Source: Enterobacteria phage IME10
Sequence record: NC_019501.1
DNA length: 39,646 nucleotides
Strand: one strand, 5' to 3'
Position 1 is the stretch's first letter. Each line of letters opens with the position of its first letter. The notes under the pieces were generated by a model. It saw only the letters and a program-made list of their open reading frames with translations, was not told where the DNA came from and did no database searches. Made by a program: the position numbers and the translations under genes. Of the stretch, positions 33,547 through 39,646 are shown piece after piece.

Positions 33547-33807
33547 TTAGCTACTGTCTTTTTTATATAGCTTCTTGAGCGTATCAAAGACAATTTTCTT
33601 AACCATATCAGATTGTTGTTCTGCCATACGCTCTGCATCGTCAATGTAAACTGATGCAGAGCTTTGTTTATCCAATGATTCTTCAATCGCTGCAATTATC
33701 TCTGAGTTCAGCGACCTGTTATTCATCTTCGCGCGCTGTTTAATTTTCGCGTGGAGTTCATGCGGAAGTCTCAAGTGAAACTGCGCCTCGTCGTATTTGC
33801 TGTACAT
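33547..33807 (-). CDS. mnt: Mnt-like ribbon-helix-helix repressor
   Basis: Track ORF 33547..33840 trimmed to the ATG at 33807. Matches P22 Mnt as remembered, especially the C-terminus (DAERMAEQQSDMVKKIVFDTLKKLYKK). Confidence 0.8.
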   Translation of the reverse strand: MYSKYDEAQFHLRLPHELHAKIKQRAKMNNRSLNSEIIAAIEESLDKQSSASVYIDDAERMAEQQSDMVKKIVFDTLKKLYKKDSS

Positions 33808-33880
33808 CCTTGATGCCTCACCAGTTGGGTGGAATGGCATCGTAACCTACTGGATAAATACTCAATAGTACCATTTCGGT

Positions 33881-33903
33881 ATGCAATCACATCATGATTG
33901 CAT
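33881..33903. promoter_or_regulatory. 9-5-9 inverted repeat ATGCAATCA-CATCA-TGATTGCAT between mnt and the tailspike
   Basis: Perfect 9-bp arms, 25 bp upstream of the tailspike ATG and divergent from mnt. Candidate operator. Confidence 0.4.
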
Positions 33904-33928
33904 CATATCATTCGTCTGGAGCAATGAA

Positions 33929-35749
33929 ATGTCAGATATCACCGCAAATGTTGTGGTAAGCATGCCTTCGCAACTATTCACTATGGCGCGTTCTTTTAAA
34001 GCCGTAGCCAATGGAAAAATTTATATCGGTAAAATTGACACTGACCCGGTAAATCCTGAAAACCAGATTCAGGTTTATGTGGAAAACGAAGACGGTTCTC
34101 ACGTTCCTGTTGCACAGCCAATCATCATTAACGCTGCTGGTTACCCTGTATATAATGGACAGATTGCCAAATTCGTAACTGTGCAAGGCCATTCGATGGC
34201 TGTATACGATGCGTATGGTGTGCAGCAGTTTTATTACCCGAATGTGCTGAAGTATGACCCTGATCAGTTGGAGCAACGATTGTCTTCACCTGGTGGCGCA
34301 GTGTATATAGGTGGCGTTGGTGGTGGAAATTTATCCCAAATAATAAATGCGGTATCTCCAGAACAGTTCGGAGCAGTAGGAGACGGATTCACTGATGATA
34401 TTGAAGCTCTCGATGCTTGCATGGCTTTTGCGAGAGAAAAACCATTAGACATTATATTTAGTAAGACATACGCAATTTCACGTCCTTATGTTATTTACAT
34501 GGGAAATAAAAAAAATCCTCGCCATATTGGTCAAGGGTCCATGGCGAAAATAATATTAACCACAACAACAAAATCTGGATTGGGTAGTGACTCATACGGT
34601 ACTGATTTGAATGTAAACGCAGCTGTTATTGTAGCCGCGATCACAGGTACAGGGCATAACCAACAACCCCAGAACTTTCGGTGGGAAAACATTGACCTTG
34701 ACACCACTGTAGATGCAGATTACGGCATGTACACGTCAAAAATGCAGTCCGCGGCAGTCAGTAATTTCAGGACGTATAATTTCAAGACAGGTATTCAGGA
34801 TAACGGTTCCTGGAATACGTTGTATGAAAACATTAAGATGTCTGCCCACTCCACCGTAGGTTTCCGTAAAAATGCTGGTACTAGTACTACTATCCGTAAC
34901 TGTTACGTAGAGAAATCGAAAGTTGGTTATCGTGTTTACAGCGGATACTCTCAGATTGAAGGGTGTGCATGCGACACTAGCACTGATGTCTCGTATTGGA
35001 TTGAAGGTAACCCAGTAGCTTTAAGTAGTGACAGCACGTTTTCTCTTGTGTCATGTGGCGCAGAGAATTCAGGGACGGCCGTGGTACGAATTACTGGGAC
35101 ACTAACAGCAAGTATTATCAACTTTCAATCATTTAATTGGTCACAACAGCAAGACCCGACACCAGATTGTTTCTTAGATATTCAGTCCAACACTGCTAGC
35201 ATTTCAGTTGAAGAGGTCAGATATCTTGGTGTTGCTCGCAGGATAAAAGACACTGGAACAAACAACACAGTTATCATAAGAAATATGACGACTCGTGGTA
35301 CAGATGTTAGAGATCAGGATACCTATCCAAATAGCACTAGAATTATTGAGCTTAATCATAACGGTGTGCGAGTAGCGACAGGTTACGATAAAAATGGGAT
35401 TTTGATCACTGAAGATAATATGACCGATTCAATCGGAAGTACTACATGGTCAAGGCTATTTAACAAACAAAAAATTTGGCGCTATAGGGGTATAGTAACA
35501 AGAACAAGCGGTCAGAGTTACGGAAGGTTACAGATCAATATTCCGTTCACTATGGCTGATAATAGTTATAGCGTTGCTATTACACCAGAAGTGTATCACA
35601 CCGATATGGCAACATATGGTTACCAATGTTCAGTAGGCCCAACTGATAAAACAACAACATCATTCTTCATCAACGTAAACTCTGGAACAGGTAACACGTC
35701 ATGGAACAGTATAGCTGTTGACGTAATTGTGATGGGGCTTTCTATCTAA
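33929..35749 (+). CDS. Tailspike protein with a conserved head-binding domain and a divergent receptor-binding domain
   Basis: Track ORF 33881..35749 trimmed to the ATG at 33929. N-terminal 110 aa or so match the P22/Sf6 tailspike head-binding domain as remembered; the rest is unrelated to P22 gp9. Confidence 0.9.
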
Positions 35750-35761
35750 TTAATGTGTTGC

Positions 35762-35797
35762 GATGGAATTGGCTAATGTGATATATGCAATTCCATC
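35762..35797. repeat. Stem-loop: 10-bp perfect inverted repeat GATGGAATTG / CAATTCCATC with a 16-nt spacer
   Basis: Lies 13 bp after the tailspike stop, at the edge of the AT-rich cargo region. Confidence 0.35.
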
Positions 35798-35993
35798 ACT
35801 TCATTGTATGCGGTTGATGACATGTGATATTTGTAATTAGATTAATAATAACTAAGTTTACTATACAGAAAGGAGGTTATATTGCTCTACTACATGGTAT
35901 GCCATGATATAAAATGTGATCTATATCTCAAGTTGCTTATTTATTATTTCCATGCTAAGATAAATTCCCGTTAATAATTATATTATATCTTCT

Positions 35994-37460
35994 ATGAGAA
36001 ATATGAAATTACTCTCAAAAAGACTAGTGGTAATTGTATGTTCTGTATTTATCCTTTCAATTATATTGTGCATACATTTAAGAAAGGGAAACTTTAACCT
36101 CAATAATATAAGTAGCGTACAAAATGCTAATGACATATCAACAACCAATAGTATATTGAATGATGATTTAGTGTTTTCCGAAAGATATGATTCCCTTTTT
36201 TATTACTTCGTGCATTCGTTTGTTAAATATTCTTCAGATGATTATGCTCTTGTTAATTATCCTGGGATGCTATCGACGAGTGGGAATAAGACAAACCAAG
36301 TTGAGGGTACGGCAAGGACGCTACCATTAATTGCTGCATGGGTTTATTCTGGAAGAGATTCAACCATTATCGTTAATGGTAATAAGTTAAATATAGTAGA
36401 TCTGATTAGGAGTAGTATATTGTCTGGAACTAATCCAAGTTCTGTAAACTATTGGGGGGATATACATGATTATGATCAGAGAATTTTAGAGGCCGCAGAT
36501 ATAGTAAGAGTCTTATGGCTTACAAAAAAAGAGATATGGAATCACTTAAAAGATAATGAAAAAAATCAGATAGCTTTGTGGCTGGAGCAAGCTGCATCGG
36601 CGAAAACTGTAAAAAACAATTGGCTACTAGCTCCATTCATAATTCAGAATTTTTTGCAGGATAATGGATATACAGTTAAGGTTAATTACAAAAATTACAC
36701 AGACTTTAAGAAAAACTATCTTGAACACGGATGGTTTAGAGATGGAAATGATGGAGAAGTAGATTTCTATAATACTTGGGGTATATCCTATGACTTATTC
36801 TGGATATCACTTATTACAGATTATGATAATGCTTTTATACTAAAAACACTATCTGAGTCGGCTGATTTCACTTCACATTTAATATCTAAAAATGGCATCC
36901 CGCTTGTTGGTAGAAGTATTTGCTACAGGACTGCAGCACCCACACCTGTTCTAATTGAAGGTCTATTAAAAAATGATGGATATCATCAAGGTTTAGCAAA
37001 ATCAGCATTAGACTATACGTGGAAATATTTTGCAAGCCACAATGCATTAGTATCAGATACATTATCAATGGGGTATTTTAATAATGACAAGCGCTTTGTT
37101 GATAATTATAGCGGGTCAGGAAGTTGCCTGTGGGGAATAAGGTCGTTAGTTGTCGCTTATATGAATGATAAAAAATCATATATCTGGAATGGGAAATATG
37201 AGAGATTGCCTATTGATAATTCTGATTTCATTATCAATGCAGATAAACTTGGTTGGATAGTTGAGGGTAATAAAGATAGTGGAGAGATAAGGGTTATTAT
37301 ACCTGCAAACGAAAAAAACTCACCAAAGATAAATGATACCAATAAACTTAAAGAAGTTATATGGAGAGTTCTTGGTAAAGCAGGAAGAACTAATCAACAT
37401 GACATTGAGTACCTAAAGCCATATTACTCATCACTAGAGCCTATATCTGACGTTGAGTGA
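35994..37460 (+). CDS. Hypothetical signal-anchored protein (488 aa), AT-rich cargo gene
   Basis: Track ORF (alternative start ATG 36003). N-terminal hydrophobic segment KRLVVIVCSVFILSIILCIHL, then an Asn/Lys/Tyr/Trp-rich domain. AT-rich codon usage unlike the rest of the window. Confidence 0.6.
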   Translation: MRNMKLLSKRLVVIVCSVFILSIILCIHLRKGNFNLNNISSVQNANDISTTNSILNDDLVFSERYDSLFYYFVHSFVKYSSDDYALVNYPGMLSTSGNKTNQVEGTARTLPLIAAWVYSGRDSTIIVNGNKLNIVDLIRSSILSGTNPSSVNYWGDIHDYDQRILEAADIVRVLWLTKKEIWNHLKDNEKNQIALWLEQAASAKTVKNNWLLAPFIIQNFLQDNGYTVKVNYKNYTDFKKNYLEHGWFRDGNDGEVDFYNTWGISYDLFWISLITDYDNAFILKTLSESADFTSHLISKNGIPLVGRSICYRTAAPTPVLIEGLLKNDGYHQGLAKSALDYTWKYFASHNALVSDTLSMGYFNNDKRFVDNYSGSGSCLWGIRSLVVAYMNDKKSYIWNGKYERLPIDNSDFIINADKLGWIVEGNKDSGEIRVIIPANEKNSPKINDTNKLKEVIWRVLGKAGRTNQHDIEYLKPYYSSLEPISDVE

Positions 37461-37493
37461 TAACTTTATATTAATTGTTATTTGACATATGTT

Positions 37494-37518
37494 TTAAGGT
37501 GGCATTATGCCACCTTTT
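37494..37518. terminator. Hairpin between the convergent cargo ORF and int (bidirectional terminator candidate)
   Basis: AAGGTGGCAT / ATGCCACCTT inverted repeat followed by TTTT; the int stop codon lies in the loop. Confidence 0.5.
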
Positions 37519-38662
37519 CATCAAGCCAGTCCGCCCACCACTGCATCATTTCTCTGCGCTTATCGAGATACTGAGCATGGTTGTAAATCCCACGCACAGA
37601 TCCGCCGTTGGCATGTGCCAGTTGCACTTCAATAGCGTCAGCAGGCCATTCGTGCTCGTTCATAATTGTGCTGAATTCATGCCTGAATCCGTGACCGCTT
37701 TCCAGACCCTCATAGCCGATTTGTTTGATCACAAGCAATACTGCGTTCTCGCAGATTGGCTTCTTCTTATCGTTGCGCCCGGCAAAAACAAACTCTGATA
37801 CTGGTTTAGTGATTGAGCTTAGTGTAGTGAGAAGTTCAACTACCTGGTCTGACATAGGAACCACATGAATTTTGCGTCCCTTCATCACACTGGCGTCAAT
37901 GGTGATAATCATGTTTTCAAAATCGACGTTCTTCCATTGCATGGAACGAAGCTCTTTTGTTCTGAGGGCTGTGTAGCGTAAAACTTTTGTCGCAATGAGC
38001 GATACGATACTTCCTGAAAATGTTGCAAGTGCTTTGTTGAATGCCGGGATCTGGTCGGCAGGAAGAAACGGGAAGTTCTTCTTGCGGTATCCCTTCATGG
38101 CGTCAGCAAGGTCAGGTGCCGGGTTATATTTAGCCCTGCCGGTGACAATAGCGTAACGGAAAACCTCGCCGCATCTTCTGCGTGCTTTGTTGGCTCGCTC
38201 CATTGCACCGCGATCTTCAAATCTGCGGATTACTTCCAGCAGTTGCATCGGCTCAATATCCAGAATCTCAAGGCCGCCGATGATAGGTAAAATGTCGTCA
38301 TCAAACATTTTTGCAAGTTCAGTCGCATACCCTACTGACCAGACTTGCTTCTTGTGCTCGTACCATTCCTTGTAAATCGCACTAAAGGAATTGTTGTTAG
38401 ACGAAGCCTTTTTCGCTTTTACCGGATCGATGCCAACCGAGATGTCTTTCCTCGCGGTCCATGCTTTATCTCTTGCCTCCTGCAAAGTCATTAGCGGATA
38501 TTTTCCTACGGTCAGGATTTTCTCCTTACCGTCAATCTTGTAGCGAAGCTGCCATACCTTTTTCCCTGACACAGGGACATAAAGGTACAGGCCATTACCA
38601 TCGAGTAGGCGGTATGGTTTTTCTTTCGGCTTTGCTGCTTCAATCTGCTTAACGGTGAGCAT
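37505..38662 (-). CDS. int: Tyrosine integrase (P4-type, with an N-terminal arm-binding domain)
   Basis: Track ORF 37505..38698 trimmed to the ATG at 38662 (MLTVKQIEAAKP...). Catalytic signatures HGFRHEF and GIYNHAQY. Confidence 0.9.
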   Translation of the reverse strand: MLTVKQIEAAKPKEKPYRLLDGNGLYLYVPVSGKKVWQLRYKIDGKEKILTVGKYPLMTLQEARDKAWTARKDISVGIDPVKAKKASSNNNSFSAIYKEWYEHKKQVWSVGYATELAKMFDDDILPIIGGLEILDIEPMQLLEVIRRFEDRGAMERANKARRRCGEVFRYAIVTGRAKYNPAPDLADAMKGYRKKNFPFLPADQIPAFNKALATFSGSIVSLIATKVLRYTALRTKELRSMQWKNVDFENMIITIDASVMKGRKIHVVPMSDQVVELLTTLSSITKPVSEFVFAGRNDKKKPICENAVLLVIKQIGYEGLESGHGFRHEFSTIMNEHEWPADAIEVQLAHANGGSVRGIYNHAQYLDKRREMMQWWADWLDEKVA

Positions 38663-38917
38663 GGGTAAAAATCCGGTGGGTAAAATTATTTTATCCACTT
38701 TTTACCCGTCATGGAGTGCGGCTGTCAACGATCTGAAGCGAACCATGACGAACTGTAAATCTACGGAAGGCTTGATATTCAGGGGATTTTGCGGACTGGT
38801 ACGGATGAGAGCGAACTGATAAATGGTGTCCCCTGCAGACATCTACTTGAAGCGGCAGGGGATTGATTGGAATGGTGTTTTTTAGATGTGAAAAAAATTT
38901 TACCCGCTATTTTACCC
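38663..38917. promoter_or_regulatory. Cluster of five GGGTAAAA / TTTTACCC repeats between xis and int (candidate integrase arm-type sites, attP region)
   Basis: Direct copies at 38663-38670 and 38678-38685; inverted copies at 38700-38707, 38898-38905 and 38910-38917. Also an 8-bp inverted repeat TCCCCTGC...GCAGGGGA at about 38829-38863. Confidence 0.4.
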
Positions 38918-39112
38918 ATTGGCGCGGCTTAAGAGCTTATTTTTGAATTCACAATGGTCACGATATAACCATCTTGCTCGCCCGTGGATAACTTTGGCTT
39001 TAGGCAGGTCCCCGGACTTAATCCGGTCATAGATGAAGGTTTTACCGAAGCCAGTATCGGCCATGATGAATTTCAAATCAACCAGTGAATCAGGCTGTAG
39101 TTCGTGTTGCAT
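38912..39112 (-). CDS. xis: Excisionase / AlpA-like small DNA-binding protein
   Basis: 66 aa basic protein upstream of and co-oriented with int, with a helix-turn-helix-like stretch (KFIMADTGFGKTFIYDRIKSGDLP) and GGAGA ribosome-binding site. Confidence 0.65.
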   Translation of the reverse strand: MQHELQPDSLVDLKFIMADTGFGKTFIYDRIKSGDLPKAKVIHGRARWLYRDHCEFKNKLLSRANG

Positions 39113-39156
39113 GAGTGCTATCTCCGAATAGGGAATCGAACCTGCAAATCAGGCAA

Positions 39157-39180
39157 TAAAAAAACCGCATTGATGCGGCG
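39157..39180 (-). terminator. Rho-independent terminator upstream of xis
   Basis: Minus strand has CCGCATCAATGCGG hairpin followed by T8. Confidence 0.45.
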
Positions 39181-39256
39181 ATGGTAGGTCTGGATATCTT
39201 GAGAAATGAACTGGCCTCATCGAGTGTGAGGCGGTGTGATTTCTTTATTTCCACTC

Positions 39257-39472
39257 TTAATGTTTGTCAGTGAATGGTTTCTCCATCTCCATTAATGCCT
39301 TATTCATCTCATTTCGTAACTCTATAGCCATCCTGACGGCTTCAACTTGTGCAGGATGTCGGTTAATTGCTGGAGAATATCGTCGGGAACGAAGGATTGA
39401 GAAAACAAAGATAATGCAAGCAACTATCTGAATTGCATTGCATGTTATTGATACAATGTGAATTGCAGCCAT
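39257..39472 (-). CDS. Hypothetical small membrane protein (71 aa)
   Basis: Track ORF with hydrophobic N-terminus (IVACIIFVFSIL); preceded on the minus strand by a terminator hairpin. Confidence 0.4.
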   Translation of the reverse strand: MAAIHIVSITCNAIQIVACIIFVFSILRSRRYSPAINRHPAQVEAVRMAIELRNEMNKALMEMEKPFTDKH

Positions 39473-39483
39473 CTACTACCCCC

Positions 39484-39506
39484 AAAAAAACCGCCATCAG
39501 GCGGCT
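39484..39506 (-). terminator. Rho-independent terminator upstream of the 71-aa ORF
   Basis: Minus strand has AAGCCGCC-TGAT-GGCGG hairpin followed by T7. Confidence 0.45.
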
Positions 39507-39547
39507 TGGTGTTCTTTCATTTCTTCAATTCGAATATTGGTTACGTC

Positions 39548-39646
39548 TTATTCGATGCGCAATCCTGGTATTTCGCCTTTTGATATTGCTAAGTCATAAA
39601 TTTGCGCAGCACTATACCCATCTCGCATCCATGAATCTAAGGCGCG
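39548..39646 (-). CDS. 3' end of a minus-strand gene entering from beyond the window end (partial)
   Basis: Hand translation gives ...RALDSWMRDGYSAAQIYDLAISKGEIPGLRIE and a stop at 39548-39550; open to the window edge. Confidence 0.3.
   Translation of the reverse strand, partial: RALDSWMRDGYSAAQIYDLAISKGEIPGLRIE

Follow-up and report, generated by a model that had tools for sequence, protein, structure and literature searches.

The window analyzed here is the 39,646-bp genome sequence of Enterobacteria phage IME10 at its full length. On the Sf6 map, window position 2 corresponds to 18596, and the end of the window falls at ~18594. That the two ends join shows the window to be a complete, circularly permuted genome, which by its sequence is that of an Sf6-like, P22-like phage (Lederbergvirus), and bears out the phage-form (attP-intact) permutation proposed in the initial annotation. 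The locus under study comprises the integrase gene int, the excisionase gene xis in the same orientation, and the interval between them (Table 1), and its DNA is 96% to 98% identical to that of phages HZ41, Sf6, HK620, HK633, N7, and others. The integrase, IntS, contains the Pfam domains Arm-DNA-bind_3, Phage_int_M, and Phage_integrase; it shares 381 of 384 amino acids with IntS of Escherichia coli K-12, residues 1–120 being identical, and belongs to the same integrase family as P4 Int (34.8% identity). The Xis protein is 100% identical to HK620 HkaC, Sf6 gp18, E. coli TorI, and the excisionases of other phages. The cargo gene located beside int in this genome is a DUF2264 gene.

Table 1. Genes and mapped, predicted, or candidate sites of the IME10 recombination module (window coordinates)
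Feature	Sequence or motif	Position	Strand	Remarks
int (IntS), heterobivalent tyrosine integrase		37505-38662	-	ATG at 38662
P'4	TTTTACCC/GGGTAAAA	38663-38670	+	abuts the int ATG (38660-38662)
P'3	TTTTACCC/GGGTAAAA	38678-38685	+	inverted relative to P'1 and P'2; int 5' leader
P'2, degenerate	GGATAAAA	38689-38696	-	one of the four P' sites P'1-P'4 in PMC2951348
PintS, int promoter	-35 TTGACA; -10 TAAAAA	38692-38728	-	-35 at 38723-38728; -10 at 38699-38704
PintS start sites		~38692/38693	-	coordinates transferred from K-12 by identical sequence
P'1	GGGTAAAA	38700-38707	-	overlaps the PintS -10 box
TorI (excisionase/RDF) sites, n=5	GTTCG/GTCCG/GATCG	38729-38816	-	same as K-12 attL; I1 38812-38816, I2 38792-38796, I3 38749-38753, I4 38739-38743, I5 38729-38733
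attP common core	CTGCAGGGGACACCAT	38823-38838	-	16 bp common to the window, K-12 attL, and K-12 attR
Candidate IHF-consensus-like site	AATCAATCCCCTG	38856-38868	-	between the P arm and the core
P-arm site, proximal (P-b, our label)	GGGTAAAA	38898-38905	-	12 bp from the distal site
P-arm site, distal (P-a, our label)	GGGTAAAA	38910-38917	-	identical in K-12 attR, HK620, and Sf6
xis (TorI/HkaC excisionase, recombination directionality factor)		38912-39112	-	66 aa; same orientation as int
T-loop-like element	TTGCAGGTTCGATTCC	39132-39147	-	exact 16-nt copy of argW nt 46-61; ends 19 nt upstream of the xis ATG

The initial annotation of this region had pointed to an 8-mer repeated 5 times between xis and int. 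Across the whole window, GGGTAAAA/TTTTACCC occurs exactly 5 times, and all copies fall within 255 bp (38663–38917), that is, within 0.6% of the window. Dinucleotide-preserving shuffles of the sequence (n = 100) contained 0.91 copies on average and 4 at most, with none reaching 5, so that the clustering exceeds chance, as had been claimed. The described arrangement needs partial correction. The 2 plus-strand copies are indeed near the int ATG, but they are located in the 5′ leader directly upstream of it rather than over the coding start (a longer open reading frame with a GTG at 38698 does not correspond to the annotated int start). As for the inverted copies said to extend into the 3′ end of xis, only the distal P-arm copy does so, overlapping the xis stop codon (38912–38914) as the sole copy touching xis, whereas the copy at P′1 lies between the core and int. 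A sixth copy with a single mismatch, GGATAAAA, lies inside the cluster and is retained in relatives. This degenerate site had been missed in the initial annotation, as had the 5 TorI (Xis) sites and the int promoter overlapping the repeats.

To locate the attachment site, we aligned the window with K-12 attL, K-12 attR, HK620, and Sf6. In this five-way alignment, the window is composed of the left half of K-12 attR (xis side), a 16-bp core, and the right half of K-12 attL (int side); the K-12 halves differ from the window at only 5 positions, all of them outside the arm, TorI, and core sites. The core, CTGCAGGGGACACCAT, corresponds to the 3′-terminal 15 nt of tRNA-Arg(CCU), argW (nt 61–75, exact match), plus 1 nt, and the same 16 bp are labeled “attP core” in the HK620 and Sf6 records. 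The crossover falls inside this core, and the sequence suggests TGCAGGG as the overlap region, between the imperfect inverted motifs GATGTC and GACACC. Bacterial genomes gave a consistent picture: the query matched in 2,164 of 5,426 E. coli genomes, and among the matches listed, those in prophage form cover window positions 38400–38838, adjoin tRNA-Arg, and end at 38838, whereas the prophage-form record vB_EcoP-683R2 from a phage collection carries the other half, from 38824 onward. The DUF2264 cargo gene was found in just 1 of the 5,426 complete E. coli genomes, that of strain CUVM53 (99.9% identity), in which the gene order is DUF2264 cargo, intS, tRNA-Arg, and yfdC. In CUVM53, cargo and int are contiguous, and the likeness to the window breaks directly after 38838, where the tRNA continues. 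The attL/attR junctions of lysogens and the 3′ tRNA fragment by which the initial annotation had proposed to locate attP are thus both identified, the target being argW, and they place attP in the repeat interval, one of the 2 positions that it had offered.

The K-12 sites have been characterized in the prophage KplE1, and at every P′, TorI, and PintS site, the window has the same sequence as K-12 attL; therefore, the KplE1 map can be transferred directly. In KplE1 attL, all IntS arm-type P′ sites contain TAAA, with P′1 overlapping the −10 box of PintS, the promoter of int, whose boxes and transcription start sites were mapped; constructs mutated in P′1, P′2, P′3, and P′4 were analyzed (PMC2951348). 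Five TorI sites (GTTCG/GATCG/GTCCG) are arranged in 2 blocks, int is repressed by both IntS and TorI, and single mutations in P′2–P′4 do not relieve this repression (PMC2951348). Because these mutations spare repression, the role of P′2–P′4 is presumably architectural, in recombination. Our site assignments rest on PMC2951348 and PMC3509656. The primers used to prepare attL and attR substrates in vitro match window positions 38640–38663 and 38917–38936, bracketing the repeat interval. The primary footprinting studies are reportedly those of Panis 2007 (JBC) and Panis 2010 (Virology). In the window, the TorI sites are located between the core and P′1. The “attP” repeat_region of the HK620 record (1441–1463) corresponds to window positions 38896–38918 and covers both P-arm copies, and the int-side repeat pairs are likewise labeled as attP repeats in that record. 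Judging from motif identity, the HK620 annotation, and conservation (see below), the 2 xis-side copies are predicted IntS sites. The candidate IHF site has 1 mismatch to WATCAANNNNTTR and coincides with a block conserved across modules, ATCAAnCCCCTGC; a window-wide scan with the IHF consensus revealed no enrichment over chance. A sigma-70 scan missed PintS, which has been mapped experimentally and has TAAAAA as its −10 box.

We then assessed the conservation of the sites in diverged modules. A scan of viral contigs with IntS yielded only copies 98% to 100% identical, which are too close for footprinting, and diverged modules were therefore gathered by tblastn searches of phage records and by a genome scan that used an alignment of xis. 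The resulting modules originate from Erwinia and Salmonella phages and from genomes of Enterobacter, Serratia, Citrobacter, Pantoea, Tatumella, Rouxiella, Edwardsiella, and others. Klebsiella phage Chronis, ~79% identical overall, retains 89% identity inside the sites and 65% elsewhere in the interval, with 24 of the 25 bases of the TorI sites conserved. In an alignment of 19 P-arm sequences, both arm sites occupy fixed positions, 12 bp apart, and 4 blocks stand out from diverged flanks, namely, the 2 arm sites, ATCAAnCCCCTGC, and TTCGATGTnTGCAGGGGAC. In phiEt88, Emek, and NM-3, GGGCATA replaces GGGTAAA at both P-arm sites, P′1, and P′4, and P′2 and P′3 carry the variants GGGCACA/CGGGCAT/GTGGTCA; at the P′2 position, relatives have GAGTAAA or GGGCA(T/C)A. 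The N-terminal domains of the integrases of phiEt88, Emek, and NM-3 form a separate clade, sharing 54% to 56% identity with that of the window, compared with 82% to 87% for the GGGTAAA group. The motif and the N-terminal domain thus co-vary, as integrase arm sites predict. Emek and NM-3, despite their GGGCATA arm motif, still have GTTC-like RDF-type sites. More distant P4-type modules (Yersinia YeP5, Stenotrophomonas S1, and Acinetobacter 5W) contain unrelated repeat words in the same layout, including an inverted arm repeat directly before the int ATG.

Collectively, the identity of the repeat motif with the KplE1 IntS sites (PMC2951348), the argW-derived core, and the covariation with the N-terminal domain support the view, already put forward as a candidate in the initial annotation and mirrored by the attP repeats annotated in HK620, that the repeats are very probably arm-type binding sites of the integrase IntS within attP. 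Xis and IHF sites likewise cluster in att arms, and 1 IHF-consensus-like match (38692–38704) overlaps P′1 and P′2, so the repeats might instead bind the excisionase (TorI/Xis) or IHF rather than the integrase. We consider this highly improbable: the TorI motif of KplE1 is different and located elsewhere, between the core and P′1, the IHF consensus is not enriched, and the repeat motif follows the integrase N-terminal domain, with the arm motif of Emek and NM-3 having changed separately from their RDF-type sites. Hardly more credible is the notion that the int-side repeats are nothing but autoregulatory operators of the int promoter with no part in recombination. Although P′1 shares bases with the −10 box and PintS of KplE1 is subject to repression by IntS, 2 copies are located beyond the core, 190 to 250 bp from the promoter, and come to lie at the other prophage end after integration; furthermore, single P′2–P′4 mutations have no effect on repression in KplE1, and distant P4-type modules, despite their unrelated repeat words, have retained a layout with two arms. 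Regulation and recombination are, moreover, compatible, both having been described in KplE1.

The second position that the initial annotation had offered for attP, the 44 bp downstream of the int stop (37461–37504), would leave the repeats unrelated to attachment. It recalls lambda and P22, in which attP is downstream of int, and a hairpin (37496–37516), whose loop contains the int stop codon, is present at this end of the gene. However, no prophage junction is found there, the junctions mapping instead to 38823–38838, and cargo and int are contiguous in the lysogen CUVM53; the K-12 attL/attR alignment and the CUVM53 junction rule out this position, to which we assign a probability close to nil. 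The stretch after the int stop also contains the mosaic boundary of the cargo slot, and it is because of this mosaicism that the likeness to Sf6 and HK620 begins only near 37494. Chance, or a low-complexity effect in what is an A/T-rich intergenic stretch, can be dismissed outright as the origin of the cluster, given the shuffling results, the confinement of the copies to a minute part of the window, and the conservation of their positions across genera with diverged flanks.

With the repeats read as IntS arm-type sites, the module may be expected to operate as follows. The small N-terminal arm-binding domain of IntS would bind the GGGTAAA words, 2 on the xis side and 4 on the int side, whereas the catalytic part of the protein would bind the core. 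Folded into an intasome, with probable bending by IHF, attP would then recombine with argW. After integration, attL, adjoining argW, would carry int, the 4 P′ sites, and the 5 TorI sites, and attR, at the other prophage end, would carry xis and the 2 P-arm sites. With the int promoter embedded in the P′ arm, int would in addition be repressed by IntS bound at P′1, over the −10 box, and by TorI bound at I4/I5, beside the −35 box. This scheme is modeled on the nearly identical KplE1, from which binding and repression at the IME10 sites are carried over by analogy. For KplE1, the literature describes arm binding by the N-terminal domain of IntS and core binding by its C-terminal part, cooperative binding of TorI to the 5 sites to direct excision, and participation of IHF in recombination; binding of IntS, TorI, and IHF and recombination have been reported for KplE1 and HK620 substrates. 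In IME10, both the contribution of IHF and the precise extent of the overlap are inferred.

Upstream of xis, the initial annotation had noted a T-loop-like motif near 39128–39140 that does not fold into a T-arm. The motif is real and represents an exact copy of argW nt 46–61, TTGCAGGTTCGATTCC; in 300 shuffles, the longest chance match to argW was mostly 10 to 12 nt and at most 15 nt, compared with the 16 nt observed. The element (nt 46–61) and the core (nt 61–75) abut in argW and are on the same strand, and the 293 bp that separate them in the window hold xis and the P arm; in attB, argW nt 46–61 abuts the common core on the “B” side. A genuine T-arm hairpin was rejected for E. coli, in which GCAGG does not pair with CCCTA, in agreement with the initial reading. 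ARAGORN identified no tRNA or tmRNA in the window and none at the element, and Rfam searches returned no family at the gathering score, with only noise-level matches around attP. No T-arm is conserved across modules; a stem is possible in some genera, including Serratia (CAGG/CCTG) and Edwardsiella, and the consensus RNA fold of the xis leader is weak (−2.85 kcal/mol), without covariation.

Across modules, the element takes the form (A/G)GTTCGATT(C/T)C and is located 15 to 18 nt upstream of the xis ATG (24 nt in Serratia). It is present in K-12, HK620, and Sf6, in Enterobacter, Serratia, Citrobacter, Pantoea, and Edwardsiella modules, and in phiEt88, Emek, and NM-3, with Midgardsormr38 possessing 2 tandem copies; Chronis, EhrS_49, Dryocola, Tatumella, Rouxiella, and some Pantoea modules lack it. 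No second T-loop copy was found at the equivalent position in 5 distant P4-type modules. The element is unchanged in the modules with an altered arm motif (phiEt88, Emek, and NM-3), and in phiEt88 the RDF-site motif is altered as well; therefore, it tracks the tRNA target rather than the arm specificity of IntS or the specificity of Xis. That phiEt88 keeps the element despite different RDF-type repeats in the int-side arm also disfavors its being a TorI operator. The HK620 record places a cII-dependent promoter at the element, as a prediction only, and our literature search found no reported function for an argW-derived element upstream of xis. Rather than a chance motif, the element might have a function in the module and serve IntS as a lone B-type core half-site, a proposal that we make tentatively and consider unlikely. 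IntS anchored at the 2 P-arm sites, ~215 to 250 bp away, could then capture the element, and this capture could control xis expression or intasome assembly. Alternatively, the element could form a leader hairpin that occludes the SD and limits translation of xis, or it could be the remnant of an ancestral attP in which 30 nt of the tRNA were present.

Raw sequence alone sufficed to place the attP of IME10 with its integrase arm sites and to identify its tRNA target correctly, which is of use for annotating this phage and for predicting its site of lysogenization, argW. With respect to mechanism, nothing new is added, the module having already been dissected biochemically in KplE1 and HK620. 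Two by-products are of some value: the replacement of GGGTAAA by GGGCATA together with the integrase N-terminal domain, a natural specificity switch that could guide re-targeting experiments, and the conserved tRNA-derived element upstream of xis.

The KplE1 (CPS-53) module of E. coli K-12, with IntS, TorI, and attL/attR at argW, was reportedly characterized by Panis, Mejean, Ansaldi, and co-workers. In all defining features that can be assessed from sequence, the IME10 module is the KplE1/HK620/Sf6 argW recombination module, with an arm-binding IntS, TorI upstream of attP, the argW core, 4 TAAA P′ sites, and 5 TorI sites. IME10 and KplE1 share nearly all residues of IntS, an identical TorI, and the same int promoter. 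However, KplE1 is a defective, integrated prophage with the sites split between attL and attR, whereas the complete phage genome of IME10 has them united in one attP; the cargo beside int also differs, comprising the gtrABS-like yfdGHI in K-12 KplE1 and the DUF2264 gene in IME10. Coliphage HK620 (AF335538) and Shigella phage Sf6 (AF547987) are, like IME10, P22-like, with int–attP–xis 97.4% to 97.9% identical and the attP core and repeats annotated at the same positions; they differ in a few substitutions outside the sites, in the receptor-binding part of the tailspike, and in the cargo (oac in Sf6 versus DUF2264 in IME10).

In principle, the module works in the manner of the lambda attP, and it shares with the lambda and P22 attP several elements of organization: arm-type sites on both sides of the core, which are read by the N-terminal domain of the integrase, an RDF cluster on one arm, and probable bending by IHF. 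As in the lambda paradigm, the arm repeats (2 + 4) flank the core and are distinct in sequence from core-type sites. By contrast, attP of IME10 is upstream of int, between xis and int, with the promoter in the P′ arm and int autoregulated; its RDF sites belong to the int-side arm (attL), and there are 2 P-arm sites and a P′ arm with 2 direct and 2 inverted sites. Such variation of intasome organization between phage families has been described (PMC2951348). Phage P4 and P4-type modules share with IME10 a target at the 3′ end of a tRNA, an attP upstream of int, and arm repeats flanking the core, annotated in the P4 record as “attP arm sequence repeat,” but have other repeat words, another target tRNA, and another RDF. 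The repeats and attP of IME10 are, accordingly, a correct rediscovery of a module that is already known, its differences from lambda having been published.

The region upstream of xis carries a second argW-derived sequence, an exact copy of the T stem and loop portion of the tRNA gene, whose tRNA coordinates directly adjoin those of the attP core, located 293 bp away in the window. Many diverged modules keep this element 15 to 18 nt (24 nt in Serratia) before the xis ATG; it is absent from other modules and present as a tandem duplicate in Erwinia phage Midgardsormr38. We searched the literature for a function of the argW-derived element upstream of xis and found no report.

Comparison of the xis–int intervals of phages phiEt88, Emek, and NM-3 with that of the window revealed replacement of the arm motif GGGTAAA by GGGCATA at both P-arm sites and at P'1 and P'4; P'2 and P'3 have variants related to GGGCATA. 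The N-terminal domains of the integrases of these three phages form a separate clade. The GGGTAAA and GGGCATA modules represent a predicted natural switch of arm specificity, with the core unchanged. The sequence of the element upstream of xis is likewise unchanged in the modules with the altered arm motif, including that of phiEt88, where the motif of the recombination directionality factor (RDF) sites is altered too.

Features of the phage IME10 genome in and around the integration module
Feature	Coordinates	Strand	Description
Tailspike	33881-35749	+	N-terminus is a P22-type head-binding domain
Cargo gene	35994-37460	+	Between tailspike and int; 488-aa DUF2264 protein with hydrophobic N-terminus
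Hairpin	37496-37516		AAGGTGGCA/TGCCACCTT; 9-bp stem, int stop codon in loop
46-aa ORF	38779-38919	-	hkaB in HK620 annotation; gene 17 in Sf6 annotation
Inverted repeat	38830-38861		CCCCTGC (38830-38836)/GCAGGGG (38855-38861); 18-bp spacer covers inferred C-side core site
argW-derived element	39132-39147	-	16 nt identical to the T stem and loop of argW (nt 46-61); upstream of xis

Two further features overlap the attP core. The inverted repeat is retained in most diverged modules, and the possibilities for it include core-type sites or a hairpin in either DNA or RNA. The 46-aa ORF covers the core, so that integration would split it; a Pfam search with this ORF yielded no match, and it is probably not a gene.

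The attP-type junction is intact in 17 E. coli genomes, several on small or plasmid-size records. The chromosomal cases have 3 or 4 query matches per record and include the chromosome of strain KSC207, in which the tailspike gene, intS, and torI are contiguous. Tandem prophages at argW would give this pattern, and so would phage-form DNA within the assembly.

Beyond the head-binding domain, nothing in the phage collection closely matches the tailspike at the DNA level, and hence its receptor specificity may be new; Sf6, HZ41, and N7 combined cover only about 36% to 37% of window positions 33800-39646. The neighboring DUF2264 cargo gene was not found in any of the phage records searched. Of 5,426 complete E. 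coli genomes, just one, that of strain CUVM53, carries the cargo gene, inside an argW prophage disrupted by IS1. The cargo gene may represent a new O-antigen-modifying or surface-modifying gene of lysogenic conversion. With TTTC after it on the + strand, the hairpin downstream probably serves as the cargo gene terminator. Similarity of Sf6 and HK620 to the window starts at ~37494, marking the cargo slot's mosaic boundary; this slot is occupied by the DUF2264 gene here, by oac in Sf6, and by gtrABS-like genes in K-12.
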